Source of the DNA: a virus
Strand: one strand, 5' to 3'
Virus record (IMG/VR): IMGVR_UViG_3300029362_000002
DNA: 64,000 nt
The translations under genes were made by a program, and so were the position numbers. Of the stretch, positions 36,826 through 62,562 are shown one piece after another (the stretch's first letter is position 1; every line of letters starts with the position of its first letter). The notes under the pieces were generated by a model, which saw only the letters and a list, made by a program, of their open reading frames with translations, had not been told where the DNA came from and ran no database searches.

Positions 36826-37956
36826 ATGGCAGAAGACTTTACATTGCCTGCATTTCTGCAGGATTGCGATGTAGATACAATTCATCAGAGAATGATGGAT
36901 ATGCTTCCAGATGATATTGACAAAACGGAGGCTGGTTTCCCATGGGATTTCACCAGGCCAACAGCATTGATCGCATCGGAACTGCTGGAATATTACATCC
37001 CGGAAACATTGAAGTTGATGTTCCCACAGTGGAGCAGTGGAGAATTTCTTGATTACCTTGCAAATATGGCAAGGTTAGCGAGAAAAGCACCGAACTTTGC
37101 CAGTGTTACGATTGAAATTACCGGAGAACCAGGAACTATTATAGCAACAGGAACGGTGTTTGCGACACCAGCAACAGAAGAAGTGGAGTCTATAGAATTT
37201 GCCACCGAAGAGGCGTGCGTACTGAACGAAAATGGCACTGGAACTGTAATCGCCAGAGCGATGATTGCCGGCGTTGAATCAAACGTGAATGCAAATACAA
37301 TTACGATGATGTCAGTTCCGGTAGAGGGAATTATATCAATCACCAATCCTGTAAAAGCAACCGGCGGTACAGAGGAAGAGACGGACGATGAACTGAGAGA
37401 GAGAATCATGGAGGCAAATGAGCAGATGGATGATTCTTATATCGGTAATGAGTCAGATTACAAACGCTGGGCTGAGTCGGTAGCCGGAATAGGAACAGCC
37501 ATTGTTGTACCGGAATGGAACGGACCAGAAACGGTAAAGATCATCGTGCTTGACGGAAACGGAGAAGCTGCAAACGAAACACTCCAGAAAGCAGTATATA
37601 ACTACATAATGAGTCCTGAAAGCCCGCTGGACAGGCTTGCACCGCCGAATACTATTTTGACAGTTTCCGCTCCGGAGCTGGTAGAGATAGATTATACCAT
37701 CAAGAGTATTGAACTGGAAGATGGATACGCCCAGGAAGAAGTCCTAAAAGATTTCAAAACTGGCCTTGCGAAGTATTACAAGACCGTAAATTCGGAAGGA
37801 GAAGTGAAATACAATTGGGTACATTCAGTACTTACCAATACGCCCGGTGTTGATGATTTTGAGGAGTTGCTTATGAATGGCGGCATTTCAAACATCAAAA
37901 TCAAACTGGATCAGTATCCGAACACAAAGTCTGTCATGGTGAAGGAGGGAAGCTAA
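36826..37956 (+). CDS. Baseplate J-like protein (XkdT-like)
   Basis: 376 aa. ATGGTEEETDDELRERI is the typical J-family motif. Confidence 0.7.
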   Translation: MAEDFTLPAFLQDCDVDTIHQRMMDMLPDDIDKTEAGFPWDFTRPTALIASELLEYYIPETLKLMFPQWSSGEFLDYLANMARLARKAPNFASVTIEITGEPGTIIATGTVFATPATEEVESIEFATEEACVLNENGTGTVIARAMIAGVESNVNANTITMMSVPVEGIISITNPVKATGGTEEETDDELRERIMEANEQMDDSYIGNESDYKRWAESVAGIGTAIVVPEWNGPETVKIIVLDGNGEAANETLQKAVYNYIMSPESPLDRLAPPNTILTVSAPELVEIDYTIKSIELEDGYAQEEVLKDFKTGLAKYYKTVNSEGEVKYNWVHSVLTNTPGVDDFEELLMNGGISNIKIKLDQYPNTKSVMVKEGS

Positions 37957-38838
37957 ATGTTTGATTTAGAGAACTTCCCAACCAGAGAACTTGCAAGGGA
38001 CATGATGGGTATGATTTCCCCCATTTATGACAACTCATATGTGGGAAAATGGATTTTCGAGGTTATGAGCGTACCTCTGTCATTGGCGCAGGACACAATT
38101 AACGAATTAAGGGAGCAGGCATTTCCGGAAACGGCAACCTGGTCCCTTCCCTATTGGGAGCAAAGCTATGGGCTGCCGACCAATGAAGCGTTGAGTATTG
38201 AAGAACGCCGGAGCAGAGTTATTTCAAAAAGGAACTACAGGAAGCCGATGAATCCGGCCAGAATTGAGATGCTGCTGAAAGAATTGTGTAAAAGAGATGT
38301 CAAGCTAATTGAAAACACAGCACCTCATACCTTTGAAATCAGCGTAAGCCCTGGAACTTCGGAAGCCAGTTTAGATCAGATTATAAAATTGGTGAACGAG
38401 GTGAAACAGGCACAAAAAAGTTTCCGAGTGGTTTTTGATACTCCAACAACAATCAAAATTCGGGCAGATCCTAAGCCGCAGAAATTCCCTTATCGAATGA
38501 CAGCAAGAGGAAGAAAAGCAGGTACATATCCGCAAGTTAATTGGGTAGGGATTTCGGAACATGGTTCTGTTATTGTGACTGCGAACAGAATGAGTAGGGA
38601 ATTTCCTTATGTTGTAGCTGGAACCAAACCAGATAGAGCATACGATGCCCGTCTGACTGCGTTACAGCTGCAGGCTTCGTCAGAAGGTAAAGGTGTCGAG
38701 TTTCCCTATCCTATTTCTGGCACAAAGCCAGATAGGAGCTTTCTGGCCGAGATAGAACCAGGAGCGTTGAATGTGCAGGTAGATAGCACAAATGCAGAAG
38801 TTTTGTATCGTGCTTGCGGAAGCAAAAGAAAATTGTAA
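37957..38838 (+). CDS. Tail protein (XkdU/gpI-like) with internal repeats
   Basis: Position after the J-like gene. Repeated FPY..AGTKPDRAY / FPYPISGTKPDRSF segments. Confidence 0.5.
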   Translation: MFDLENFPTRELARDMMGMISPIYDNSYVGKWIFEVMSVPLSLAQDTINELREQAFPETATWSLPYWEQSYGLPTNEALSIEERRSRVISKRNYRKPMNPARIEMLLKELCKRDVKLIENTAPHTFEISVSPGTSEASLDQIIKLVNEVKQAQKSFRVVFDTPTTIKIRADPKPQKFPYRMTARGRKAGTYPQVNWVGISEHGSVIVTANRMSREFPYVVAGTKPDRAYDARLTALQLQASSEGKGVEFPYPISGTKPDRSFLAEIEPGALNVQVDSTNAEVLYRACGSKRKL

Positions 38839-38852
38839 AAGGAGGAGTAGCA

Positions 38853-39158
38853 ATGTTATCAGCTGCGGCACTGGCTGGATTCAGAAATCATGTGAAGAAT
38901 ACGGTCGCTTATGCCAAATACAAAATCGATTCCACCTATTACCAGTCAGAGATTACAGATATCACTATTAGCAGTGATGGAAAAGTAAAGATTGAATTTA
39001 TATTAAACCCTTCGGTATCCGGCGAGGTAAAGGTAACAGAAGTACAGCTTTACAGTACAAGTGGAGAGCTTTGGTGGAGTAAAGCTGAAAATATCACCAA
39101 GAAATCCAAAAAGGAAGGTATTTATTACCGAGTAACCATCAACATTTTAGAAGAGTAG
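38853..39158 (+). CDS. Hypothetical tail-fibre-associated protein
   Basis: ATG at 38853 follows GGAGGAG. Confidence 0.45.
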   Translation: MLSAAALAGFRNHVKNTVAYAKYKIDSTYYQSEITDITISSDGKVKIEFILNPSVSGEVKVTEVQLYSTSGELWWSKAENITKKSKKEGIYYRVTINILEE

Positions 39159-39174
39159 GAAGGAGGTATGCACA

Positions 39175-39666
39175 ATGTACGAACCGACATATTGGAAAGA
39201 TGAAGTCGTAGAAAATCCGTATCGGTACAAAGAAACGCAGAACTCGGATGGAAGTATTGAACACGTCCCTGATCCGGGAGAAGTTCTGCAGGAAGGCACT
39301 GAGCAGAGCGCAACTAATTTCAATCACATGGAGCAGGGAATCCTGGAAGCACATGAAATGAGCGCAGAGGCTGTCAGGATGCTAAAAAGTGTTATGAGAA
39401 AAGTAGAGGGACTTGACGGTGAGAAAGTCACAGTCACCCTGACAAATTCCCAGACATATCCGTTTAACAACTCAGTGAAAACCATTCAGCTGAAAACTCC
39501 ACGCAATTATAAGACGTATCTTATCACCGCAGAAGTTATCAGCGTATCTGGTGGTGCTGTGGGAGATATTGAGTTTACGGACAAGCTGCTGAATGGATTC
39601 AAGGTAGCTTACACTGGATCTGCGAAATCAGTAACCATGGACCTGTATGTGAGAGGAGGAATGTAA
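39175..39666 (+). CDS. Tail fibre N-terminal-type protein (XkdV-like)
   Basis: YEPTYWKDEVVENPYRY...GEVLQEGTEQSATNFNHMEQGI is a pattern common at the N-terminus of Firmicutes phage fibre proteins. Confidence 0.5.
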   Translation: MYEPTYWKDEVVENPYRYKETQNSDGSIEHVPDPGEVLQEGTEQSATNFNHMEQGILEAHEMSAEAVRMLKSVMRKVEGLDGEKVTVTLTNSQTYPFNNSVKTIQLKTPRNYKTYLITAEVISVSGGAVGDIEFTDKLLNGFKVAYTGSAKSVTMDLYVRGGM

Positions 39667-39668
39667 TC

Positions 39669-39839
39669 ATGGCAAATGTGATTATCCAGGACGAAAGAAG
39701 ACAGGCAGACATCGAGTATGTTGCCAAGAAGTACGGAATCGACACCAACAACCCGGCAATGAGAGAAGCTGCAGAAGTAACTGCGGTCAGAAGCCGTGAA
39801 GCAATGGAAATGGGAAGAACACAGAGGAGGTATTACTGA
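39669..39839 (+). CDS. 56-aa hypothetical protein (XkdX-like position)
   Basis: MANVIIQDERRQADIEYVAKKYGIDTNNPAMREAAEV.. fills the gap exactly. Its stop overlaps the next ATG. Below the ORF-track cutoff. Confidence 0.4.
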   Translation: MANVIIQDERRQADIEYVAKKYGIDTNNPAMREAAEVTAVRSREAMEMGRTQRRYY

Positions 39840-40204
39840 TGAAGATTACACATTTACCGGAAGACGGAAAGAATTTCATTCCTTACGAGGTATCTGGAAA
39901 AACGATCGACTTTGACGATGGAGAGCTGATGTTCAATGTCTCAAAGAAAGAGCGTGACTATGAGGTTGTGATCGATATTTGCGAAGACTACACCGGTGGA
40001 CTGGTGATGGGAGCCGATGCAGGCGACAAGTATGTTGCACAGATCATTATTCCTGCAAGGGAATATACAGAAGTAGAAAAAGAAAATCCGAACTATGATC
40101 CAGAGAATGAAGAGGGAACCGAACAGCCTACTATCAAAGAGTTGAAGCCGGTTCCTTTTTCTATGGATCGTTGCGAACTGAGATTATGGGAAAGAGAGGT
40201 CTAA
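39839..40204 (+). CDS. Hypothetical tail-associated protein
   Basis: 121-aa ORF directly upstream of the DGR target. Confidence 0.5.
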   Translation: MKITHLPEDGKNFIPYEVSGKTIDFDDGELMFNVSKKERDYEVVIDICEDYTGGLVMGADAGDKYVAQIIIPAREYTEVEKENPNYDPENEEGTEQPTIKELKPVPFSMDRCELRLWEREV

Positions 40205-40207
40205 ATC

Positions 40208-41254
40208 ATGGCAAATTTTGATGATATGAAGCTGGCAGTCGAGGCACTGTCCGGAGGAAAGAACACAGTTTTACTGGATGATCGTGGGATGCCGTCCATC
40301 ATGGTTGCGTTTCCAAAATTCAAAATCTCAGATGTAATTGCCGGAGGAAGTGAGAACATCCATCCGGCATTTTCCGTAGGTGGTGCGGAAAAAGATGTTG
40401 TGTATGTCTCCAAATTCCAGAACATTGTAATGAATGACAGAGCATATTCACTTCCGTTTAAGGACCCGAAGACCGGCGTGAACTTCGACCAGTCCGTCAA
40501 CTACTGCAGAAACAAAGGAACTGGATGGGGCCTGATGCCGTATTCCTTATGGAGCGCTATCGCTCTGTGGTGTAGAAAGAACGGCACTATGCCAAGAGGT
40601 AACAATAACTACGGCAGCGATCACGGATACCCACACGAGAAAGGAACACCGACTTACTACGATAGTAATAAGATCGCTCGTGTAGCAACCGGTTCTGGTC
40701 CTGATACATGGAGCCACAACTGGATGCCGGACGGAATCTTCGATCTGAATGGAAATGTATGGGAGTGGTGCGCTGGCATGAGACTTGTTGATGGCGAAAT
40801 CCAGATTATTCCGTATGCGAACAGCATGATTTTGACAACCAGTATGGCGGCTGGCTCTACAGAATGGAAAGCAATCGCAGCTGACGGTTCGCTGGTGGCT
40901 CCTGGCACTGCTGGTACTTTGAAATGGGATGTTGTTTCTGGAAAGATTCAGCTTACCAAAGGAACTATCACGCCGAAAGACACAGGAAACTGGCTGCCAT
41001 ATAACAATATGACACTTGGCGAAGGACTTACAGCAGCTCCGGAGTTGGCAAAAGCTCTCCTCCTGTATCCGGATGAGCCAAACGGAGATTACGGTGGAGA
41101 TTACCATGGAGTAAATACTTCCGGAGAGCGTTTGCCGCGCTGCGGGGGCAGCTGGAACTACACTTCCCGTGCTGGCGTGTTCAACGTGCACCTGGTCAGC
41201 CCTCGGACTAGCGCCGACGGCTACCTCGGTTTCCGCTCCGCTTTTGTAAACTGA
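40208..41254 (+). CDS. DGR variable protein 1 (FGE-sulfatase/C-type-lectin fold, putative receptor-binding tail protein)
   Basis: DLNGNVWEWCAGMR and C-terminal CGGSWNYTSRAGVFNVHLVSPRTSADGYLGFRSA. The last 113 nt are VR1. Located after the fibre genes. Confidence 0.85.
   Translation: MANFDDMKLAVEALSGGKNTVLLDDRGMPSIMVAFPKFKISDVIAGGSENIHPAFSVGGAEKDVVYVSKFQNIVMNDRAYSLPFKDPKTGVNFDQSVNYCRNKGTGWGLMPYSLWSAIALWCRKNGTMPRGNNNYGSDHGYPHEKGTPTYYDSNKIARVATGSGPDTWSHNWMPDGIFDLNGNVWEWCAGMRLVDGEIQIIPYANSMILTTSMAAGSTEWKAIAADGSLVAPGTAGTLKWDVVSGKIQLTKGTITPKDTGNWLPYNNMTLGEGLTAAPELAKALLLYPDEPNGDYGGDYHGVNTSGERLPRCGGSWNYTSRAGVFNVHLVSPRTSADGYLGFRSAFVN
41132..41244 (+). repeat. DGR variable region VR1
   Basis: 113-nt match to TR with 14 differences. 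Of these, 13 are at TR adenines and 1 is T->G at 41139 near the 5' edge. Confidence 0.9.
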
Positions 41255-41270
41255 GGACTGTAAACTGATT

Positions 41271-41288
41271 GCCGCCTGGGAAGGCGGC
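41271..41288 (+). promoter_or_regulatory. Hairpin downstream of VR1 (DGR target-recognition-type cruciform)
   Basis: gccgcct-ggga-aggcggc: 7-bp GC-rich stem, 4-nt loop, 17 nt after the stop codon. Confidence 0.65.
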
Positions 41289-41312: not shown

Positions 41313-41744
41313 GTGGCAGAACAGAGATCCGACAATATGACAGCAGAGATGGAAGAGGAAGGACTAACGATATTACAGAAAATTGAAGATATGGAAGTGT
41401 ACGCCCTCCCTCTCATCGAAAGATGGTCCATTGCACACCAGAAATTATTAGGTGACGATATAGCTCATTGTATGAACAGAATGTCGCAGCTGGCGTCGGC
41501 ATTAACGGTTGCATACTACAAGAAAACTTCCATCAGCGAACTGGATGAAATGAACAAAGCACTCCAGTCTCACATCAGAGTAGCCTATCGCCTGGGATAT
41601 TTGAAAGGAAAATCTTCCAGGAGTGAATGGGAAGGCCGTTCTGCAGAGATCGGAAGAATGATTGGAAAATATAAAGAATGGGTATACGGCGATCAAAAAT
41701 CGTCACAACAGAATAAAAGTGCAAAATCAAGGTACAGCCGGTAA
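41313..41744 (+). CDS. avd: DGR accessory variability determinant (Avd-like)
   Basis: 143-aa helical, basic protein between target and TR. GTG start 7 nt after AGGAG (ATG 41337 is an alternative). Confidence 0.65.
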   Translation: MAEQRSDNMTAEMEEEGLTILQKIEDMEVYALPLIERWSIAHQKLLGDDIAHCMNRMSQLASALTVAYYKKTSISELDEMNKALQSHIRVAYRLGYLKGKSSRSEWEGRSAEIGRMIGKYKEWVYGDQKSSQQNKSAKSRYSR

Positions 41745-41780
41745 TGATCCGGTTGTGCCGCCGGGAATAGGCTATTTCGT

Positions 41781-41893
41781 TTGCCGATCTGCGGGGGCAA
41801 CTGGAACAACACTTCCAATGCTGGCGTGTTCAACGTGAACCTGAACAACCCTCGGACTAACGCCAACGGCAACATCGGTTTCCGCTCCGCTTT
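41781..41893 (+). repeat. DGR template repeat (TR); transcribed with the 227-nt TR-RT spacer as the template RNA
   Basis: Non-coding copy of VR1/VR2. In the VR frame it holds 9 AAC + 1 AAT codons (ICGGNWNNTSNAGVFNVNLNNPRTNANGNIGFRSA). Confidence 0.9.
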
Positions 41894-42120: not shown

Positions 42121-43341
42121 ATGAAGATTAAGAATGTTTTTGATCTTATCTTCTCCATGGAAAATCTGTATGGAGCCTTAGAAGATGCTTCAGATCAAAG
42201 GAGATATAACAAGGATGTAATGCTCTTCAATTTCAACGCCTGGGATAATTTGAAAGAGATTAGAGATTCTGTTTACGATGGGACGTATACCATAGACAAA
42301 TATTATATTTTCTATGTGTATGAACCGAAGAAAAGGATGATAATGTCCATCAAATTTAAACACAGAGTTGTTCAATGGGCGATATACAGAGTTATCAATC
42401 CTATGCTGATTAAGGGATATATCAAGGATTCTTACGGATGTATCCCGGAAAGAGGACCACTGACCGCTATGTTTCGGCTTAAATACTGGTTGGAACAGGT
42501 GAACCGTAAGGATGAGCAGTGGTATTACTTAAAACTAGATATAAGCAAATATTTTTACCGGATATCGCATCGGATACTAAAGAAAATACTTGCAAAGAAA
42601 ATTAAGGACCAGCGGTTGCTGAAATTGCTGGAATCAATTATAGATTGCAAACATACACCGTTTGGATTGCCGCCAGGACGTTCACCAGGGGAAGTACCTT
42701 TGGAAGAACGTCTTTTTGATGTCGGAATGCCTATCGGAAATCTGCTATCACAGGTGTTTGCGAATGTGTATTTGGACGCACTGGATCAGTTCTGCAAGAG
42801 GGAATTGCAAATTCATTGTTATGTCCGATACATGGATGATGTGATTATTCTCAGTAGTAGCAAGGCACAGCTCCAGGAATGGAAAGTCAGAATTGCTTCT
42901 TTTCTGGAAACGGAGTTGGAACTGCAGCTAAACAATAAAACTTGTATCCGGCCAATAAATCAAGGCATTGAATTTGTCGGATACAGGGTATGGCCTGACA
43001 AAGTGGTACTCAGGAAGAAAACAACACTTCACATCAAGAGAGTTTTGAAGGCAAAGAAAGAAGCGTACAGAGTGAAGGAAATTTCTTTTAAGCAGGCAAC
43101 AGACACACTGCAGAGTTACTTGGGAATGATGAAATATTGTGACTGCGATGCATTGAAGGAGAAGATTCTGGATGATTTTGTCCTGACGCACGCAGACATG
43201 AAACAAATTTACGAGGAAGGAGGGGATCGGGATGAGAACTACTATCGCAGAGGTGATGGATGGTCAGTCGAAGATTATCCAGTTACAGACGAAACTTATA
43301 GACCGGCTGGCACTTGCATTACTGCAGCATGGAACTATTGA
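42121..43341 (+). CDS. DGR reverse transcriptase
   Basis: RT motifs EPKKR, SYGCIPERG, LKLDISKYF, MPIGNLLSQVFANVYL (DGR-type SQ), YVRYMDDVII (YMDD), GIEFVGYRV. Confidence 0.9.
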   Translation: MKIKNVFDLIFSMENLYGALEDASDQRRYNKDVMLFNFNAWDNLKEIRDSVYDGTYTIDKYYIFYVYEPKKRMIMSIKFKHRVVQWAIYRVINPMLIKGYIKDSYGCIPERGPLTAMFRLKYWLEQVNRKDEQWYYLKLDISKYFYRISHRILKKILAKKIKDQRLLKLLESIIDCKHTPFGLPPGRSPGEVPLEERLFDVGMPIGNLLSQVFANVYLDALDQFCKRELQIHCYVRYMDDVIILSSSKAQLQEWKVRIASFLETELELQLNNKTCIRPINQGIEFVGYRVWPDKVVLRKKTTLHIKRVLKAKKEAYRVKEISFKQATDTLQSYLGMMKYCDCDALKEKILDDFVLTHADMKQIYEEGGDRDENYYRRGDGWSVEDYPVTDETYRPAGTCITAAWNY

Positions 43342-44856: not shown

Positions 44857-46495
44857 GGCGGAGAAAAGAGCCTATAAGAAATTCAGACAGGCCGGCATGA
44901 CTGCAGCTGGGGCTTGCGGCCTGATCGGAAACCTGGAAGCGGAGAGTGATGGTTTCTACACAAACCGGGTTGAATACCTGTGCCTTAAACGGCTGAAAGA
45001 AAAGGGAAAAGTCTATACCCATGCCACCTATACTGCAGCGATCGACAGCGGAAAGATCTCCTGCGAGGAGTTCTTACATCCGCTTTCCGGAAAACAGTAC
45101 GGGTACGGATTGGCCCAGTGGACAAGCCCTGGCAGAAAATCTGGTCTTTGGAATTTTGCCAAGCAGAGAGGCGTGTCCATTGCGGACGAAGATATGCAGC
45201 TGGATTTCTTACTGAAGGAACTGAGAGAAAGCTACAGCCCGGTTTTGGCTATTCTCAAATCAGCAACAACAATCCGGCAGGCATCCGATGTTGTTTTAAA
45301 GAAGTTTGAAATTCCGGCCAACACAGGGGAAAGCGTATGCGAAAGTAGAGCGGCAAGAGGCCAGAAATTCTATAACGATTATGCAAAGGAGGAAAAAATT
45401 GTGAGCGTGAAAATTAGTAATTGTGGACATGATGAAAATGGACGTTATGCAGGAGGCCAGGCGGGCGATCAGACTGGTACAGAGTATCAGATCATCAACT
45501 GGTACAACAGACCTTGGCTCTGTGTTTTACGATTTGAGGACCAGGAAGTAGCGGCACTGATTGCAGAGATGGCAACACAGGCCGCAAACAATAATATGAT
45601 CGGCTATGACCAGGGAACTGCAGGGAATAGTAATGATCGCTATACCTTCTGGGAGCAGCTGGCCGCAAATGGTTATGATCCATCAAAAATCAAAAAGCCA
45701 TGCGAAACAGACTGCAGCCAGAGTACCGCAAGCATCGTGAAAGCAGTCGGATACCGTCTGAATAAGCCGAAGATGAAAGCAGTTAGCGTTTACTTGACTA
45801 CATATAACATGAGAAGCGCATTCAAGACAGCGGGAGCAAAGGTTCTCACCGATCAGAAATATCTGACAAGCGGTACATGCTTAAAGCCTGGAGATATCCT
45901 GCTGAATGACAATCATCATGTGGCTATCGCAGTGAGTGGAGATGCCAGTTCCAATGCAACTCCGGCAAAGAAGAATTATTTGGAAAAGGGAGATACCGGA
46001 TCAGAAGTAACCGCGATGCAGAAAATGCTTATCAAAGTTGGATATTCTTGCGGAGCCGCAGGAGCTGACGGAGATTTCGGCTCTGACACTGATTCAGCTC
46101 TTCGCAAATTTCAGAAAGACAATGGGCTGACGGTTGATGGACAGTATGGAACTAATTCCAAAGCCAAGCTGACCGCTCTGTACAACAAAAAGGTTGGAAC
46201 CACCACATCCAACAAGAAAGACGTAACGACAGTAGCCAAAGAGGTGATTGCCGGTAAATGGGGTAGCGGAGATGAGCGGAAAAAGAAGCTGACTGCGGCC
46301 GGCTATAATTATGACACTGTTCAGAAGAAGGTGAATGAGCTGCTGAAGACAAGAACAAAGAAATCCGTAGCTGAAGTTGCAAAGGAAGTCGTTTCCGGAA
46401 AATGGGGGAACGGAGCCGATCGGAAGAAAAAACTGGAAGCAGCCGGTTACAATTATGCCGAAGTCCAGAAAGAAGTAAACAAGCTACTGAAATAA
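44840..46495 (+). CDS. Multidomain endolysin
   Basis: N-terminal lysozyme-like domain (GACGLIGNLEAESDGF..YGLAQWT). Central Cys/His amidase-peptidase-like domain (CETDCSQST..NHHVAIAV). PG_binding_1-like repeat (GDTGSEVTAMQKML..DGDFGSDT). Two Cpl-7-like repeats (GKWGSGDERKKKLTAAGYNYDTVQKKVNELL). Confidence 0.8.
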   Translation: MSINVEAEKRAYKKFRQAGMTAAGACGLIGNLEAESDGFYTNRVEYLCLKRLKEKGKVYTHATYTAAIDSGKISCEEFLHPLSGKQYGYGLAQWTSPGRKSGLWNFAKQRGVSIADEDMQLDFLLKELRESYSPVLAILKSATTIRQASDVVLKKFEIPANTGESVCESRAARGQKFYNDYAKEEKIVSVKISNCGHDENGRYAGGQAGDQTGTEYQIINWYNRPWLCVLRFEDQEVAALIAEMATQAANNNMIGYDQGTAGNSNDRYTFWEQLAANGYDPSKIKKPCETDCSQSTASIVKAVGYRLNKPKMKAVSVYLTTYNMRSAFKTAGAKVLTDQKYLTSGTCLKPGDILLNDNHHVAIAVSGDASSNATPAKKNYLEKGDTGSEVTAMQKMLIKVGYSCGAAGADGDFGSDTDSALRKFQKDNGLTVDGQYGTNSKAKLTALYNKKVGTTTSNKKDVTTVAKEVIAGKWGSGDERKKKLTAAGYNYDTVQKKVNELLKTRTKKSVAEVAKEVVSGKWGNGADRKKKLEAAGYNYAEVQKEVNKLLK

Positions 46496-46556
46496 CAGCG
46501 GAGAAATGGTGCTTTTGAAGAGAGTCTGCACCTCTGAGAAAAATATATCACACACG

Positions 46557-46590
46557 CCCTGGTCCTTCGGGACTGGGGCATTTTTTATTG
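46557..46590 (+). terminator. Intrinsic terminator after the lysis cassette
   Basis: ccctggtcc-ttcg-ggactgggg, then cattttttatt. Confidence 0.65.
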
Positions 46591-47104: not shown

Positions 47105-47368
47105 CCAGTAATTCCAATGTTCGTAAAATCGAGTTTTCCACATTATCCACACTCAGTTGAGGATAAGATACAAATGCGCAAAGCCTTATAAATAAAGGAA
47201 AATCTTCATATTATAATAAAAAACGTGTGACATTGTCCCATCAATGTCACGAAACCGTCACGTCACTATTACTCTATATCTATTTCTGTATCTAAATCTT
47301 TTTCTATCTTTTTCTTTTATTCTCACTATTAGTTATTGAATGTTGCAGTTGCGAAAATAATTTGCATA

Positions 47369-47430
47369 AATAGAGCAAAACTATTGACAAATACGCAAGT
47401 GCGAGTTATAATATATACATAATCAAACAA
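47369..47430 (+). repeat. 62-bp exact direct repeat, copy 1 (contains promoter P1)
   Basis: Identical to 53384-53445. Confidence 0.95.
47384..47412 (+). promoter_or_regulatory. Consensus promoter P1 with operator-like motifs
   Basis: TTGACA, 17 nt, TATAAT. GCAAGTGCGA in the spacer (47395-47404), GCAGTTGCGA exactly 50 bp upstream (47345-47354), and TCGCAAATGCGA palindrome at 47477-47488. Confidence 0.75.
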
Positions 47431-47521
47431 AACACAAGAACCAAACAGGTGGGTGTTATTTTTTTACCCAAATGGTTCGCAAATGCGAGATTGATTAAAT
47501 AATCTGAAAGGAGAACACCAG

Positions 47522-53131: not shown

Positions 53132-53385
53132 GCAGGGTAGTTTATCCGGCAAGGGAAACCGTAACGGAGATCAGAGGCGAAGATGCGGCAGAGATCATCA
53201 ATAAAATGATGGAGAAGGAAGGAATGACGCAGATCCAGCTGGCTCAGAAAATGGGAATCACCAGACAGAGAGTGAGCAGATTGATTTCTGGGAATATGAG
53301 ATATGAGAATTTCGTGAGGATTATCAATGCTGCTGGGTATGATGTGAAAATTGAAAAACGCAAGTGCGAGAAAAACTCGAAATAA
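53122..53385 (+). CDS. XRE-family HTH regulator, last gene of operon 1
   Basis: MTQIQLAQKMGITRQRVSRLISGN. Its 3' coding end contains an operator-like GCAAGTGCGA (53360-53369). Confidence 0.65.
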   Translation: MEMSRVVYPARETVTEIRGEDAAEIINKMMEKEGMTQIQLAQKMGITRQRVSRLISGNMRYENFVRIINAAGYDVKIEKRKCEKNSK

Positions 53386-53445
53386 TAGAGCAAAACTATT
53401 GACAAATACGCAAGTGCGAGTTATAATATATACATAATCAAACAA
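53384..53445 (+). repeat. 62-bp exact direct repeat, copy 2 (contains promoter P2)
   Basis: Identical to 47369-47430. Confidence 0.95.
53399..53427 (+). promoter_or_regulatory. Consensus promoter P2 with operator-like motifs
   Basis: TTGACA, 17 nt, TATAAT. GCAAGTGCGA in the spacer (53410-53419) and again exactly 50 bp upstream (53360-53369). TCGCAAATACGA at 53675-53686 and TCGCACTTGCA at 53694-53704. Confidence 0.75.
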
Positions 53446-53473
53446 TAAATAAAACATTTGGGAGGTATATATT

Positions 53474-55698: not shown

Positions 55699-55946
55699 TT
55701 GTTGGTTATTGCATCCTTAATGGAAAAAAGTGGGTCATGTTCGAGGACAAACAGTGTGCAGCTGGAGAAGTAAAGTTGACCGATGGATTCAAGGATAAGC
55801 TGATCCGTTGGAACAGCGATAAGCTGATCGGAATGGAAAGCATCAGCAAGGAAGAGATTGATCTGAGAAAAGTCGTGAAGCGCATGAGAGGAGCTAGGCC
55901 TTGGCATCCTCTTCTGCAGGCTTTGAGAAAGGAGCTGGAAGGATGA
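55695..55946 (+). CDS. Hypothetical protein
   Basis: 83 aa, ATGA-coupled. Confidence 0.5.
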   Translation: MIVGYCILNGKKWVMFEDKQCAAGEVKLTDGFKDKLIRWNSDKLIGMESISKEEIDLRKVVKRMRGARPWHPLLQALRKELEG

Positions 55947-56617
55947 ACGAAATTAAGATCACGCCGGAAGAAATCGGAAAGGCCGCAGAGCTTATCCGAA
56001 AAGTAGCAGAGGGAACAACGCAACCTGCAGAGCCGCTTACCAGTTGGGAAATCGCAAAAATTTTCCAGAGTACGCACACGAGAATTTTCAATCGGATTTC
56101 TCGGTTTTACAATGCAGAAGCGTCCGAAGACGAAAAGAAGGAGTTCGAGATTGCGTACAGACCGTATAGAAACCAGAGAAAACATCCAATCTGGAAACTG
56201 AGTGAAAAAGGCTGCCAGCTTTACATTGAAAAGATATGTGCCGAGGAAAAACGTAGTAAGGCTTTCGTGGAAGGACTTGGGAAATTTAATGATTTAATCG
56301 CACAGCATTTCCATGGAGTAAAAACGCAGGAAAATATCCTGATGAAGGGAAGATCCAGAACAGAGTGCAGTTACATAAAGAATCTGTTCGACCAGTTTAT
56401 CGAAGGCCCGGCAATCGAGAATAGAGAAATCGAAGAGCTTGGGGCAAAATACGAAGAGTTTTATAAGGCAATGGGCGGGCTGAATGATGATGTAGCAGCC
56501 AAAAGAAAAGTAGAGGACTCGGTAATGGGAGTTGCAATCGAGGCAGAAATGCAGGGATTTATCTATGGATTCAAAGTATTTGAGATACTTTTGAATAGAG
56601 AATTAGCCACAGCATAG
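55943..56617 (+). CDS. Putative Rha-like regulatory protein
   Basis: ATGA-coupled ATG at 55943. LTSWEIAKIFQSTHTRIFNRISRF resembles the Rha-type DNA-binding N-domain. Confidence 0.4.
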   Translation: MNEIKITPEEIGKAAELIRKVAEGTTQPAEPLTSWEIAKIFQSTHTRIFNRISRFYNAEASEDEKKEFEIAYRPYRNQRKHPIWKLSEKGCQLYIEKICAEEKRSKAFVEGLGKFNDLIAQHFHGVKTQENILMKGRSRTECSYIKNLFDQFIEGPAIENREIEELGAKYEEFYKAMGGLNDDVAAKRKVEDSVMGVAIEAEMQGFIYGFKVFEILLNRELATA

Positions 56618-56629
56618 GAGGAAAAGAAC

Positions 56630-57772
56630 ATGGCAAAAGCAAAGTTTATGAATGGTGAGTTTTCAGCAAAGTTTAAAGGAAAGAGAAGATTCGTTGCAGA
56701 GCAGATGGAAGCAATTAAGGATTATGCGGCAAGAGATGATATGCAGATCAATATTTGTCCGGTAATCCAGGAGAGACCTTCTGGAAAAAAGAATACTGAG
56801 GAGCAGATCACACCAACCCATTTCATCAGCGGAAACCTGGAACACGCAGTAGTGGCAATTTACGACAATGCCGGCATCCCGTCATTCATGCACAGATTCC
56901 GCAAGGTGACAAATAAGGAGCTGTTCGGTGGAAGCGATAAAACAAATGCAGCGTTTATCATTGGAGATGAAGAATACGATGAAATTTACATTTCTGTCTA
57001 TGAGAACTGCGAAATTAACGGAAAGCCTTATAGCCTGCCAATGCAGAAGCCATGGACAGGAATTACCAATGATGAGGCGGCGAGAGCTTGTTTTTCAAAG
57101 GGAGAGGGATGGCATCTTATGACAAGAGCTGAATGGGGATTACTTGCGAACCTCAGCTTGAAAAATGGTACTTTGCCACATGGCAACACGAACTATGGAA
57201 AGTACCATGCAAACCCGGAAGAACATGGAGAGTCAGCAGGAGAATCCGGAAAGACCAAAACCGGATCAGGACCGGCAACATGGACCCACGATCATACATT
57301 GGAAGGCGTTCACGATCTGTCCGGAAACGTATGGGAAATGGTAAGAGGCCTGAGAATAAAAGACGGACAGCTGGAGATGGTAAAGAATAACGATGCAGCA
57401 TTGGATATTGATCTTACCCTTGAAGGAGATAACTGGGAACCGGTAAGAGATGATTCCGGAAAGTCTATTAGAGTAAGCGTTTCCGATGGCGGTATCAAAT
57501 TCCTTGCTGAAAGTGATCACGAAGAGGGATACGATGGATGTAGATGGGAAGATGTTAATATTGATTGCGAGAGCGAAACACTGAAAGAGCTGGCTCTGTA
57601 TCCTGGAGAGCCGGAAGCCTACTGCTATATTGATAGCACTGAGGGAGAATATTTGCCGATCTGCGGGGGCAGCTGGTACAGCGCTTCCAGTGCTGGCGTG
57701 TTCCGCGTGCACCTGAGCAACCCTCGGACTAACGCCCGCTGGCTACCTCGGTTTCCGCTCCGCTTATTTTAG
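56630..57772 (+). CDS. DGR variable protein 2 (paralog of target 1), C-terminus frameshifted by a 1-nt insertion in VR2
   Basis: GIPSFMHRF, DLSGNVWEMVRGLR, ICGGSWYSASSAGVFRVHLSNPRTNAR then WLPRFPLRLF* instead of G-Y-L-G-F-R-S-A. Confidence 0.8.
   Translation: MAKAKFMNGEFSAKFKGKRRFVAEQMEAIKDYAARDDMQINICPVIQERPSGKKNTEEQITPTHFISGNLEHAVVAIYDNAGIPSFMHRFRKVTNKELFGGSDKTNAAFIIGDEEYDEIYISVYENCEINGKPYSLPMQKPWTGITNDEAARACFSKGEGWHLMTRAEWGLLANLSLKNGTLPHGNTNYGKYHANPEEHGESAGESGKTKTGSGPATWTHDHTLEGVHDLSGNVWEMVRGLRIKDGQLEMVKNNDAALDIDLTLEGDNWEPVRDDSGKSIRVSVSDGGIKFLAESDHEEGYDGCRWEDVNIDCESETLKELALYPGEPEAYCYIDSTEGEYLPICGGSWYSASSAGVFRVHLSNPRTNARWLPRFPLRLF
57653..57765 (+). repeat. DGR variable region VR2 (remote)
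   Basis: Matches TR with 13 substitutions, all at TR adenines, plus one inserted T at 57740. Confidence 0.9.
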
Positions 57773-57798
57773 AAAACTGAAAACTGAGTAACTGATAT

Positions 57799-57816
57799 GG
57801 CGGCTGGAAAGCCGCC
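57799..57816 (+). promoter_or_regulatory. Hairpin downstream of VR2
   Basis: ggcggct-ggaa-agccgcc: 7-bp stem and 4-nt loop. The stem arms are swapped relative to the VR1 hairpin. Confidence 0.65.
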
Positions 57817-57845
57817 GTTCATATATGAGAATGAGGAGAAAAGCC

Positions 57846-59201
57846 ATGGAAGAAAGAAGAGATATAGTTTATATCGGAATAGATCACATCCATACGCACC
57901 CGGAGAATCCAAGAAAGGATCTCGGAGATTTGACGGAGCTGGCAGAATCGATGAAAAAACAGGGGTGTTTACAGAATTTAACGGTTGTTCCGGTAGAAGA
58001 ACAGCCTGGAGAGTATTATGCGTTGATTGGGAACCGCCGGCATGGAGCATCAAAGTTAGCAGGCCTGGAAGAATTGCCATGCAGGATCGCTGAAGGATTA
58101 AGCCGAAAAGAACAGTTGTCAATCATGCTGGAAGAAAATATGCAGCGCAGCGATTTGACAATTTATGAGCAGGCCCAGGGATTTCAGCTTATGCTTGATT
58201 TGGGAGATACCGAGGAACAAATTGCTGAGAAAACTGGATTCAGCAAGACTACCATTCGCCGTAGGTTAAATATTGCGAAGCTAAACCAGGATGAACTTAA
58301 AAAGAAGGAGCAGGATGAAAATTTTCAGTTAACGCTGAAGGATTTATACGAACTGGAAAAAGTGAAAGATATTAAGACGAGGGATAAAATTCTCAGAGAA
58401 GCAACCAGTTCAAGAGACTTGGTGAGCAGAGCGCAAGCAGCTGCAGCAGAAGCTAAACGAAATGAAAATGCAAAAAAACTGAAAGAGATGTTGAAGAAGA
58501 AAGGCATTAAGGCTGCCCCGAAGTCAGCAGAAAATGAAATTTGGAGCGGAAAATGGAATACTATTAAGGAGTATGAGTTAGACAAAGACGTTCCGGAGCA
58601 GATCAAACTTCCAAAGACAGAAGAAGAAAAATTTTTCTTAGTATATTATCGTAGCTTGAGAATTATTACAAAAATTCCAAAAGGAAAGAAAGAACTTTCA
58701 CCTTGGGAAAAAGAGCAAAAGGAAAAGGATCAGGCAAAAAGGAAAATCAAAGCGATATTAAAAGAAAGCAGTGCCAGAAGAAAAGAATTTCTGGAGAATA
58801 TTATTTCGGGGAAAATCAGCCCGGTTAAAGATGAATCTGAAGTAAAAGAAAAGATATGGGAAGCTATGATGGCACTTGGCAGTTACATTTATGCAAGCAC
58901 AGTGCGAGATTTCTATTTGAAAAAGAGCTACTATGAATCTTCACCAGAAGAGAAAAAAGCAGCAGATGAGTCAGCGGGAAAACTTAGTTCCTTACATCAG
59001 ATGATGATTATTTTGCACAATTCAATGAAAATTTGCAACGAACCGTATGATTACAACTTGGTCTTTAATAAAAACAAAGGAGACGCACTCTTGAAAGGAT
59101 ATGAGGTGTTTGAGCCGTATGGTTGGTATTTTGAAGATGAAAAGGAACGTCAGGTGCTGGATGGAACATCTGAACTGTACAGAAAGGAGAAGAAAGAGTG
59201 A
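57846..59201 (+). CDS. ParB/Spo0J-like DNA-binding protein with long C-terminal extension
   Basis: ATG at 57846 follows GAGGAG. ParB N-domain (IDHIHTHPENPRK, LIGNRRHGASKLAG) and HTH (EEQIAEKTGFSKTTIRRRLNIAKL). Confidence 0.7.
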   Translation: MEERRDIVYIGIDHIHTHPENPRKDLGDLTELAESMKKQGCLQNLTVVPVEEQPGEYYALIGNRRHGASKLAGLEELPCRIAEGLSRKEQLSIMLEENMQRSDLTIYEQAQGFQLMLDLGDTEEQIAEKTGFSKTTIRRRLNIAKLNQDELKKKEQDENFQLTLKDLYELEKVKDIKTRDKILREATSSRDLVSRAQAAAAEAKRNENAKKLKEMLKKKGIKAAPKSAENEIWSGKWNTIKEYELDKDVPEQIKLPKTEEEKFFLVYYRSLRIITKIPKGKKELSPWEKEQKEKDQAKRKIKAILKESSARRKEFLENIISGKISPVKDESEVKEKIWEAMMALGSYIYASTVRDFYLKKSYYESSPEEKKAADESAGKLSSLHQMMIILHNSMKICNEPYDYNLVFNKNKGDALLKGYEVFEPYGWYFEDEKERQVLDGTSELYRKEKKE

Positions 59202-59680
59202 GCAGAAGACCAGAGATAACAGCTACGTTGTCTCTGGCACTTGAAAAGAAAATCAATCCGTACAATGATCCACGGATATACTGGGCTAAGGAAGTGACAT
59301 TTGATTACTCCACAAACCATGCAGTCAGAGTTGATTATATGAGATATAAGCCGGTTAATAATACTGTGTCCGGAATAGAAAAAGGAGACTTTTACTGTTA
59401 TGAAGTGAAATCATCTGTAGAGGATTTTCGCTCGGGGCATGGCTTGAATTTCCTCGGAGATTATAATTACCTGGTAATGCCGGAGAAGATTTACGCAACG
59501 ATTTCATTGGAGGTCCCACACTACGTTGGTGTATATGTTTTGGATGGAACAGAATTAACCTGCATAAAGAAAGCCAAGAGACATGATCGGAGCAGACCAG
59601 TATCAGAAATGCTGCTTATGATGTTTAGATCAGCAGCAAGAGACAGGAGGCGGATATGCAGTGAAATTACGCAGGAATAA
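59198..59680 (+). CDS. MmcB-like PD-(D/E)XK-fold protein
   Basis: VDYMRY...GDFYCYEVKSSVEDF gives D..E-x-K spacing. ATGA-type coupling to the ParB-like gene. Confidence 0.45.
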   Translation: MSRRPEITATLSLALEKKINPYNDPRIYWAKEVTFDYSTNHAVRVDYMRYKPVNNTVSGIEKGDFYCYEVKSSVEDFRSGHGLNFLGDYNYLVMPEKIYATISLEVPHYVGVYVLDGTELTCIKKAKRHDRSRPVSEMLLMMFRSAARDRRRICSEITQE

Positions 59681-60101
59681 TGAATATATGTTTCAAGTTG
59701 TAGAGTGCAATACTTATATGAAAAGAATTAAGGACGGAAAATATATCCGGCACTCTGAACAATACTCCGATGTTTATTACTATGTTGACGAAAATGCTGA
59801 AGAAAAGGAAAGAAAAGTAGAACCGGAAGAATGGGGCGGTAGCGATTTCGTAAAAACATATTACGAGGCAGTGGAGAAGAGATTTGTAGGCGTTGTCATA
59901 GGTATGAAGCTTATTACGCTGAAAGCAGAATTGTTTTGTGATAGTGCTTGCAGGCCAGATGGAGTAGAAGTTGATTTTGTAAACCGAAATGATATAGAGC
60001 AGAAAAAGGTTGCCATTGTAGCATATGGGTGCAATAAAACAAGGCTTGTTCCGTTGGAACAGTTAAAGATCATAAGGAAAGTAGAGGAAGGCGAGACATG
60101 A
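59661..60101 (+). CDS. Hypothetical protein
   Basis: GTG 10 nt after AGGAGG. 146 aa. Confidence 0.45.
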   Translation: MKLRRNNEYMFQVVECNTYMKRIKDGKYIRHSEQYSDVYYYVDENAEEKERKVEPEEWGGSDFVKTYYEAVEKRFVGVVIGMKLITLKAELFCDSACRPDGVEVDFVNRNDIEQKKVAIVAYGCNKTRLVPLEQLKIIRKVEEGET

Positions 60102-61111: not shown

Positions 61112-61221
61112 AAAATGGCGATATGTATTGATTTTGCAGGCATTACTGTTTAGATCGAGGAAGCTGCAGACGCAGGAAAGTTCTAATCAAACCTTTTTAA
61201 TCAAAGAGTCAACAAACCTAG

Positions 61222-61254
61222 AAAGTACCGTAGTTCCAAGGGCTGCGGTACTTT
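61222..61254 (+). terminator. Long hairpin in the centre of the attP-like region (terminator-like)
   Basis: aaagtaccgtagttc-caa-gggctgcggtacttt, then ttcttagttt. About 15 bp including G-U pairs. Confidence 0.4.
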
Positions 61255-61320
61255 TCTTAGTTTAGATCAAAAAAATGAGAAAGTAATTTGAGACACGGTG
61301 AGAAGCCTTGAAAATGGCAA

Positions 61321-61383: not shown

Positions 61384-61420
61384 ACAGGAAAAGAAAAGCC
61401 GCAACCACAAGGGTTACGGC
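61384..61420 (-). terminator. Terminator of the integrase gene
   Basis: On the minus strand: gccgtaaccc-ttgt-ggttgcggc followed by ttttcttttcc. The int stop codon lies in the stem. Confidence 0.55.
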
Positions 61421-62562
61421 ATTTTTTCTATCTCGGCTCTGAGCCATTCAATATCACGGATTGTATAGACCGCCTCGGTTACGTCTGTGATCTTGTGACC
61501 GGCAAGACGTTTCACAACGTACTCATCTACGCCCGCCTTTTTCGCCATCGTAATGAATGTTGTTCGGGGATCATGCGGCCGATGTTCGGAACGAAGGTGC
61601 AGTGCGGCAACGACCTTGTTAAAGCGCCCAGCGTATTTGTCATAGGTTATTCTCATACCGCCCTTGGCAGCCTCCGGATCATTAAAGAGGCGGTCACTTC
61701 CAAGAGAAACTGCTTCGTCATAATTTCTTTTTACCAGGTCCCGAATACGAGTGTGGATCGGGACGGTACGGTGCTTGCCAGCCTCGGTCTTCATACCGCC
61801 GGTAATACACCACTTTTCCAAGTCAACGTCTTTTAATTCCAAGAGCCCCATTTCTTGGGGACGCCATCCCATATAACACTGTATAAGCAACCAGTCGGCG
61901 AATTTAATGTTGCCAACAGTATTCCAAAGGGCTTCCATCTCAGAATCATTGAAGTTAATATGGCCACGCTTTGCATCTTCCTTTTCTTTGATGATGTCAT
62001 TTGAAAGCTCAAAGGTACGAGCATAGTTTTTCGAGACAAGATCATATTCCATGGCATAGTCCAGCATTAGGTTGAACATGGATTTTATTCTGGATTTCGT
62101 TCCCGGAGATGCAGGCACTTTAGCCCCGGCGTCCTTGCCCCGGTTTTGAATTACATATCCGTCTTCCATGATTCCTTTTATGTGTCGAGCACGCAGATCC
62201 TTTACACGCATCCCCTGTATGGCGTGGCAATATCTCCAGGCAGCAATGATTGTCCTGGAAGAAGAATCACTTTCGAGGGTAGGAAAGTAAGCTGCCGTCC
62301 ATCTTTCGTAAAGCTCGGCCAAGGTCATGTTATCGTTCTGAATGTCGTAGGGATTAGCTCCGTACTCAGCTAAAGCCTGCAGAGCATCTTTTTTAGTCTT
62401 AAAGGTTCCGATAGGAACTCTGTTCTGTACTGCTTTTCCGGTTTCTTCATTTATGACCCAGCCGAGGGTTACTCTGGCCAGATATGGCTTACGCCGGTTT
62501 CCGGATAATTTAGTTACGCTTCCATAACCGTTCGGTAATTTCAATAGATCATCTCCTGTCAC
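61414..62562 (-). CDS. int: Tyrosine integrase
   Basis: 382 aa. C-terminal catalytic pattern GWRPQE, HRPHDPRTTF, LAGHKITDVTEAVYTIRD (R..H-x-x-R..H..Y). Confidence 0.85.
   Translation of the reverse strand: MTGDDLLKLPNGYGSVTKLSGNRRKPYLARVTLGWVINEETGKAVQNRVPIGTFKTKKDALQALAEYGANPYDIQNDNMTLAELYERWTAAYFPTLESDSSSRTIIAAWRYCHAIQGMRVKDLRARHIKGIMEDGYVIQNRGKDAGAKVPASPGTKSRIKSMFNLMLDYAMEYDLVSKNYARTFELSNDIIKEKEDAKRGHINFNDSEMEALWNTVGNIKFADWLLIQCYMGWRPQEMGLLELKDVDLEKWCITGGMKTEAGKHRTVPIHTRIRDLVKRNYDEAVSLGSDRLFNDPEAAKGGMRITYDKYAGRFNKVVAALHLRSEHRPHDPRTTFITMAKKAGVDEYVVKRLAGHKITDVTEAVYTIRDIEWLRAEIEKMP

Follow-up and report, generated by a model that had tools for sequence, protein, structure and literature searches.

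A predicted second, remote target of a phage diversity-generating retroelement, encoded outside the virion module

What would a phage do with a hypervariable protein encoded far from its virion genes? This question is raised by a 64,000-nt stretch of DNA (hereafter the window, meaning the whole stretch that we analysed) from the IMG/VR virus record IMGVR_UViG_3300029362_000002. It carries a diversity-generating retroelement (DGR) composed of a reverse transcriptase (RT), the accessory protein Avd, a template repeat (TR) and an adjoining target gene, target 1 (T1), which contains a variable repeat (VR1). A second gene, target 2 (T2, 56630–57791; positions are those of the window and features lie on the plus strand unless stated otherwise), ends in another variable repeat (VR2, 57652–57765), 15,872 nt downstream of the TR (41780–41892). 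A first-pass annotation, made from the sequence alone, had described VR2 as a remote DGR target in an apparently non-structural operon. We ask here whether VR2 is a genuine target, what state it is in, and what its protein may do.

One template repeat and two variable repeats

A repeat search over the whole window detected a unit of ~116 nt in three copies, at 41129–41244 (VR1), 41778–41893 (TR) and 57650–57765 (VR2). When VR2 (57652–57765) and TR (41780–41892) are aligned in register, they differ by one base inserted in VR2 and by 13 substitutions, all 13 at TR adenines, for which the chance expectation is about 4.5e-9 (26 A in 114 nt of TR). The first-pass annotation had matched the repeat to the same TR with 13 substitutions, all at adenines, had placed it about 15.8 kb downstream and had pointed out that the last two variable codons show AAC>TAC and ATC>CTC in both VRs; the alignment bears out these three observations. 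Gene conversion from VR1 to VR2 was considered for this shared TAC CTC and rejected, as 7 A sites are mutated in both repeats where about 6.5 are expected, and 5 of the co-mutated sites have the same base where about 3 are expected given the A>G bias, which is not beyond chance. The 26 adenines of the TR all occupy codon position 1 or 2, and its variable codons comprise 11 AAY, 2 ACT and 2 ATC; with 15 variable codons, T2 has about 10^15 encodable variants, and stop codons are never reachable.

VR2 also has the sequences that guide homing in characterized DGRs. The GC-rich 3′ end GGTTTCCGCTCCGCTT is common to TR, VR1 and VR2, and a hairpin follows each of the two VRs whereas none is found downstream of the TR. 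The VR2 hairpin (GGCGGCT-GGAA-AGCCGCC, 57799–57816) has a 7-bp GC-rich stem and a 4-nt GRNA loop and begins 33 nt past the repeat; its DNA fold has an energy of −11.2 kcal/mol (z = −4.2) and is kept in relatives. The VR1 hairpin (41271–41288) likewise has a 7-bp GC-rich stem and a 4-nt loop (GGGA), its stem letters being different with the pairing preserved. Both fit the target-site rule of Guo 2011 (PMC3240598), namely a 7–10 bp GC-rich stem with a 4-nt GRNA loop located 4–34 bp downstream of the VR. According to the established DGR mechanism, TR RNA would be reverse-transcribed by RT-Avd with misincorporation opposite adenines, and the cDNA would replace any VR whose GC-rich 3′ end matches and which is followed by a GRNA-loop hairpin; both VR1 and VR2 possess these two elements.

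The cassette that would provide these activities is located next to the tail genes. T1 (40208–41254), with VR1 at 41131–41243, adjoins it downstream of Baseplate_J and Mu gp48-like genes, the stretch 36826–40204 coding for baseplate and fibre proteins. The Avd protein (41313–41744) matches Pfam bAvd (3.4e-9) and NCBIfam DivGenRetAVD (1.6e-11), both under their curated cut-offs. The RT (42121–43341) is a single open reading frame (ORF) of 406 aa, in which IGNLLSQ (residue 205) and YMDD (residue 237) are recognizable, and RVT_1 was called on a gene identical to it in a related contig (L035). The signature of A-restricted substitutions and the homing signals make VR2, with high confidence, a genuine second target of the single DGR of the window (T1/VR1, Avd, TR and RT).

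An actively diversified gene with a frameshifted copy in the window

Variation was analysed in 23 independent VR2 copies of Blautia prophages and the human gut, those of five IMG/VR relatives and 18 full-length human-gut metagenome copies retrieved via the VR2 3′ flank. The A-specific population variation that the first-pass annotation expected at VR2 was found by this comparison of genomes: the 26 TR-A columns are all variable, 2 non-A columns vary within the repeat, 22 of the 23 copies are distinct, and the flanks are conserved. Nucleotide diversity is 0.08–0.10 in VR2 versus 0.003–0.028 over the rest of the T2 gene; outside VR2, pN/pS is 0.12, pointing to purifying selection on the scaffold, and the codon differences within VR2 are 598 non-synonymous and 0 synonymous. 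VR1 is also variable at 26/26 A columns (8 genomes), and the TR is identical in 6 of 7 IMG/VR relatives. Contigs bearing both targets have an identical TR, but their VR1 and VR2 differ from each other. Diversification extends to large protein clusters, since the T2 clusters at 90% identity have 6730 (the orthologue's own cluster), 4071 and 2002 members, and those sampled (15 of the 6730 cluster) differ mainly at VR positions; in a cluster with replication-module context (P0120) the VR is likewise hypervariable. Judged from these comparisons, VR2 is an actively diversified target in this lineage. A megablast search of 55900–59700 against GenBank phages gave no match, and relatives exist there at the protein level only.

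Three observations on the repeats of relatives do not follow this simple pattern. First, a non-adenine T/G polymorphism separates the T of the TR at 41788 from VR1 (41139) and from 7 of the 23 VR2 copies; it lies at the 5′ edge of the repeat, beside the first variable A (ATC versus CGC, CTC or GTC), and its recurrence in VR1 and VR2 copies is not accounted for by A-mutagenesis. Second, in Dulem virus 37 (L001, PP511443.1, 21200–21460) VR2 differs from the TR also at four non-adenine sites (T>G, G>T, C>T and G>T). One of these changes replaces the G of GFRSA, almost invariant elsewhere, by C, and this VR2 is perhaps in decay or rewritten less often. Third, one exact T2-type sequence (P0039, contig L049), 63% identical to the T2 of the window, is indexed in 355 collection blocks; its VR looks frozen in a very widespread prophage, unlike those of sister clusters with thousands of variants.

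The copy of T2 in the window carries a lesion within the repeat. The intact extent of the gene, preceded by a ribosome-binding site (AGGAGG, 8 nt before the ATG), is 386 codons followed by a TAA stop at 57789–57791. A T inserted at 57740, which falls between TR 41867 and 41868, causes a +1 frameshift; it appears in a gapped alignment, whereas an ungapped comparison collapses past TR 41867. The ORF 56630–57772, taken as the target gene in the first-pass annotation, is in fact this frameshifted form, the inserted base having been overlooked. It ends in NARWLPRFPLRLF at an early TAG stop (57770–57772), while without the extra T the protein would end in NARGYLGFRSAYFRKLKTE at the TAA. Residues 370–386 of T2 are lost, including the G374-F-R-S-A378 strand at the C-terminus, in place of which the frameshift puts WLPRFPLRLF and a stop. 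No variation occurs at R376, S377 or A378 among 46 homologues, and G374 and F375 come close to invariance; in the AF2 model of an intact orthologue, the strand 377–379 is found in a block of mean pLDDT about 90. T2 orthologues in 23 other genomes have 386 aa (379 in one subgroup) and end in GFRSAYFRKLKTE, and T57740 occurs in 0/23 of the other VR2 copies, all of which keep the ...GFRSAYF... frame. Because the frame is shifted inside VR2 and the invariant core strand is gone, the T2 copy in this genome is probably a null allele. The first-pass annotation had named a clearly dead VR as evidence against its proposal; this holds in part for the present genome, with its frameshifted VR2, and does not hold for the lineage, where the repeat is intact and diversified.

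Could the inserted T be a sequencing or assembly artefact in a hypervariable region, the gene being really intact here? VR regions are known to upset assembly, and both a chimeric contig (L024) and a frameshift in a G run (P0022) are visible among the relatives. However, at least 5 samples yielded the exact 380-aa frameshifted product, on 10 contigs produced independently in JGI, ENA and Logan assemblies, and the insertion lies outside any homopolymer, in the context CGC-T-GGC. Samples with this allele include SRR5056827, SRR5056673, ENA ERZ28634859 and ERZ28634741 (biosamples SAMN05971562 and SAMN05971560) and JGI 3300029443. The repeated recovery of the same broken allele indicates that T57740 is truly present in a clonal allele and did not arise in assembly, and we consider an artefact very improbable. 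Twelve contigs carry the exact T1, and most of them belong to the sample series of the frameshifted T2 (VCHO16-1, SRR5056xxx). Programmed frameshifting at T57740 was rejected, as there is no slippery sequence and the base is missing in all relatives. A homing event with its 5′ crossover upstream of 57740 would be expected to overwrite the lesion, the 3′ homing elements being intact.

Two related contigs deserve mention in this respect. One (L012, OIDU01003908.1) carries a T2 gene that is otherwise 95%-like but is interrupted in frame by a nonsense mutation of independent origin, W306*, and represents a second natural null allele. In the other, the chimeric contig cited above (ENA OZCR01002455, ~1654–1800), the sequence passes from the 5′ flank of T1 (AAATACTTCCGGAGAGCG...) through a VR into the T2 3′ flank with its hairpin, which reflects either misassembly over the shared repeat or true recombination between T1 and T2. 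For the annotation of DGRs, T57740 calls for caution, since a TR/VR comparison restricted to substitutions misses indels, and an indel decides the viability of a target.

Fold, paralogy and gene neighbourhood of T2

T2 matches phrog_2889 (5e-96) and Pfam FGE-sulfatase (1.2e-5). As a structural model we used the AF2 prediction of the intact orthologue P0001, 96% identical to T2 (pLDDT 80, pTM 0.80), whose best match in the PDB is TaqVP (5VF4; TM 0.71, E 4.5e-28, 29% identity). TaqVP, from a Thermus aquaticus prophage, is a single-domain monomer with a C-type lectin fold of the FGE subtype and a C-terminal VR (Handa 2019, PMC6328139). The model therefore predicts, very probably, that T2 is a single-domain TaqVP-like C-type lectin binder with its VR at the C-terminus. 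T2 resembles Mtd of phage BPP-1 in A-specific homing, in its C-terminal VR within a C-type lectin fold, and in the GC-rich 3′ end and GRNA hairpin; unlike these features, the structural match of the model to Mtd is weak (TM about 0.29), as is that to TvpA. The N-terminal trimerisation or anchor domains of Mtd-type proteins (beta-prism, beta-sandwich) were not found in T2, the best match of which is a monomeric single domain.

The paralogy of T2 with T1, proposed in the first-pass annotation, is confirmed (36% identity), and the two proteins differ in their N-terminal region. T1 aligns with TaqVP over nearly its full length (4.6e-62), from T1 residue 5 and TaqVP residue 11 onward, whereas T2 aligns with it (3e-34) only from residue 76. 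TaqVP, a cassette-adjacent target, is thus T1-type by sequence, and T2 lacks the N-terminal motif that T1 proteins and TaqVP have in common. Among T2 orthologues the N-terminal ~75 aa differ while the core is 59–74% identical. By these alignments T2 combines the common core with its own N-terminal module of ~75 aa, and the ~70-aa N-terminal extension described in the first-pass annotation is better understood as a replaced module than as an addition. Direct reading of the T2 N-terminus revealed no hydrophobic signal or anchor segment; a secreted or surface role in the lysogen, which had been among the suggested functions, was rejected on this ground and is unlikely. T1 proteins are mutually 36–57% identical and T1 versus T2 about 27–37%, the four closest T2 proteins (those of the window, Dulem virus 37, L033 and L034) being 59–74% identical. 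The second target of Faecalibacterium phage Lagaffe, gp40, leans to the T2 group (41% identity and 202 bits versus 32% and 151 bits for T1), and that of Saumur is about equally far from both groups (27–34%). The T2 lineage hence almost certainly consists of old paralogues distinct from the tail-module target, as far as sequence identity can tell.

T2 is separated from the virion genes not only by distance, as the first-pass annotation had maintained in placing it outside the virion module. A strong intrinsic-terminator-like hairpin with a T-run (46556–46579), directly after the endolysin gene, closes the late operon; T2 is located about 10 kb past it, behind its own sigma-70 promoter, P2 (53399–53427), a perfect TTGACA-17-TATAAT with a palindrome, CGCAAGTGCG, in its spacer. 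P2 heads the operon containing T2, and no plus-strand terminator-like site was found between P2 and 61221. The promoter named in the first-pass annotation is thus perfect in sequence, the "early" timing attached to it being an inference. An identical copy with the same spacer palindrome, P1 (47384–47412), lies upstream, and together P1 and P2 head about 14 kb of small plus-strand genes, T2 being in the second operon. Both promoters are included in a 62-nt identical core duplicated 6 kb apart (47335–47437 and 53350–53452). The motif CGCANNTGCG occurs 5 times in the window versus 0.6 expected, with copies beyond the P1 and P2 spacers at 47478, 53359 and 9741, and is probably an operator for a regulator; sought at the CI/Cro end of the window as a tie between P2 and the immunity repressor, it was absent there.

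Immediately 3′ of T2, a ParB-like gene (57825–59201) is solidly supported (Pfam ParB_N 2e-12, TIGR00180 above cut-off). Of the neighbours listed in the first-pass annotation this one stands, while the Rha-like gene on the other side of T2 (23.8 bits versus a cut-off of 29.9) and the MmcB-like gene (PD-(D/E)XK; 19.4 versus 22) remain below the Pfam thresholds. The genes recognized in the operon are ParB-like, weakly MmcB-like, DUF4313 and DUF3560-like. Four integrated copies in bacterial contigs (L026, L038, L025 and L022) all lose similarity to the window at about 61186, which places the attachment crossover at this point; it follows that the T2 operon runs to the right prophage end and that the junction seen in the window is the excised or circular one. 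The other side of the junction carries the integrase (61414–62562, minus strand) and a CI-type repressor. A terminator-like hairpin at 61221–61255 is parted from the T2 operon upon integration, and in one lysogen (L026) the operon then abuts chromate-transporter and pst genes of the host. The phage resides in Blautia species, and cultured Blautia lysogens, among them Blautia fusiformis CLA-AA-H217 and Blautia sp. Sow4_E7, carry an intact T2. Further upstream, at the 3′ end of the endolysin gene, a tandem 134-nt repeat of 70% identity (46214–46347 and 46358–46491) probably encodes duplicated cell-wall-binding repeats.

This arrangement at the prophage end brings up a role for T2 as the diversified sensor of a prophage defence or exclusion module, expressed in lysogens from P2 and having the ParB-like and MmcB-like proteins as effectors. 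In the integrated form the T2 operon is indeed the last before the right prophage end, its consensus sigma-70 promoter has an operator-like palindrome, and DGR-diversified intracellular sensors are known in bacteria (PMC10907252). Against such a module, PADLOC matches nothing in the operon, the neighbours change from phage to phage, the MmcB match does not reach its threshold, and in other phages T2 is found in the middle of the replication module and not at a prophage end, so that we regard it as improbable.

The surroundings of T2-type genes in other phages share one trait with those in the window: in the 8 contexts examined (the window and 7 others), all 8 genes lie outside the tail module. 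In Dulem virus 37 the gene has the lysis genes on one side and the integrase on the other, with a methyltransferase and Lar nearby; Lagaffe gp40 heads an exonuclease/Gam/ERF/SSB operon, and the Saumur gene adjoins a PAPS reductase and a replication initiator. Among the metagenomic contigs, T2 follows a Mom-like gene and precedes SSB, RecU and ParB_N genes in L033, is followed by ParB_N and then PAPS reductase in L034, is flanked by an N6_N4 methyltransferase and a PAPS reductase in L049, and has a methyltransferase upstream and a PemK-like gene downstream in L050. Candidate genes of DNA modification or counter-defence (N6_N4 methyltransferase, PAPS reductase, Mom-like, OGG and Lar) are found near T2-type genes in these relatives.

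Possible roles of a remote target

Phages with two targets for one DGR have been described before. In the survey of Wu 2018 (PMC5758913), many phage-associated DGRs have one adjacent and one non-adjacent target within 50 kb, although the gene module and function of the non-adjacent targets are not treated there; in Roux 2021, remote targets are undetectable by design. A close precedent by architecture is Quimbyvirus, where one RT and TR serve two C-type lectin targets, one beside the tail-fibre genes and the other distal to the structural module, in a defence or counter-defence island among methyltransferases and nucleases; Benler 2021 (PMC8008677) proposes that this distal target is non-structural and acts in phage–host conflict. 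T2 resembles it in sharing a TR with a first target and in being encoded away from the structural module, and T2-type genes of relatives are likewise found beside N6_N4 methyltransferase, PAPS-reductase-like, Mom-like, OGG/HhH-GPD and ParB_N genes. There are also differences: Quimbyvirus belongs to the 'Quimbyviridae', phages of Bacteroides, whereas the window derives from a temperate, myovirus-like Blautia phage that encodes an integrase; T2 shares the strand of the late genes, the Quimbyvirus target lying opposite to them; and the window is further distinguished by its RT in a single ORF and its frameshifted T2. Lagaffe (Cornuault 2018, PMC5883640; Gulyaeva 2024, PMC11792537) shares with the window the order baseplate, T1, Avd, TR, RT and lysis genes as well as a second target of the FGE/CLec type (gp40), but identity is about 40% and gp40 has extra residues past its VR. 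Both Lagaffe VRs are variable among cognate genomes, and Gulyaeva 2024 (PMC11792537), who finds the paired targets 'intriguing', reads both proteins as Mtd-like host-range determinants. The two-target architecture is hence already known (Quimbyvirus, Lagaffe, Wu 2018), and what is new here is an abundant example from a Firmicute phage.

These precedents lead to different expectations for T2. Following Gulyaeva 2024 (PMC11792537), it could act as another receptor-binding protein or adhesin that is expressed from an operon other than the late one and joins or coats the virion via its own N-terminal module, which would give the phage a second, independently diversified specificity; we assign to both the function and this benefit a substantial probability, though one clearly below even. 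The homology of T2 to T1, TaqVP and Mtd-type proteins agrees with such a function, as do its BFVD matches, which include C-terminal domains of tail fibres. The two targets share a TR, their turnover is comparable and all 26 A columns are variable in both, and the divergence of the N-terminal ~75 aa next to a core 59–74% identical recalls the swappable anchor domains of receptor-binding proteins. Encoding in the tail or baseplate module with co-transcription with the late genes, as for an Mtd-type receptor binder, was however not found for T2: none of the 8 contexts is in or beside a tail module, the genes being within replication or DNA-modification operons, a terminator lies between T2 and the late genes, and T2 is missing the N-terminal motif that T1 proteins and TaqVP conserve. 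The persistence of null alleles in lysogens is weak evidence in the same direction.

We slightly favour, over a second receptor-binding protein, a binder that is not part of the virion, because all 8 contexts are outside the tail module, T2 has its own promoter past the late terminator, the N-terminal motif of T1 and TaqVP is lost, and Quimbyvirus provides a precedent. T2 would then be a hypervariable cytoplasmic protein, produced outside the late programme, that acts as a binder in phage–host conflict, for instance of a variable host factor, and not a component of baseplate or fibre; drawn from gene order and analogy, this assignment is tentative and falls a little short of an even chance. 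Several points weigh against it. Gene position is circumstantial as evidence for a role outside the virion, and, as the immediate neighbours of T2 vary from phage to phage, no partner gene is constant; PADLOC gave no match for T2 and nine operon genes, nor did NCBIfam for T2. Because T2 and T1 use one TR, their binding-site chemistry is the same, and T2 turns over as fast as T1, as expected of a receptor binder. Searches of the literature found no virion proteomics or transcripts for Lagaffe-type phages and no proteomic or adsorption results for T2-type proteins. To our knowledge, the sole phage DGR target with a tested function, Mtd of BPP-1, is a receptor-binding protein. Finally, the samples with the frameshift may share one cohort, the clonal allele being real but not widespread. 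Taken as a whole, our best explanation of the locus is about evenly poised between right and wrong.

A more specific and more speculative scenario, which we think unlikely though worth stating, is that T2-type proteins may be antibody-like cytoplasmic binders produced apart from the late programme. Diversification by the DGR would ensure that a phage population at all times includes variants that bind and neutralise, or sense, a strain-variable host target of defence or takeover, the VR2 frameshift being a reversible OFF state erased by the next homing event. If this were true, DGRs in gut Firmicute phages would serve counter-defence besides adsorption.

The role of non-structural phage DGR targets has been a standing question since Quimbyvirus was described in 2021, and the lineage of the window is well suited to address it. 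It is very abundant in the human gut, where single clusters at 90% identity contain thousands of VR variants, and the combination of intact T2 genes in cultured Blautia lysogens with natural null alleles (the T57740 frameshift and W306*) makes the question of function tractable. If T2 is indeed a protein that acts outside the virion, the reach of DGR diversification would go beyond adsorption and include intracellular conflict.

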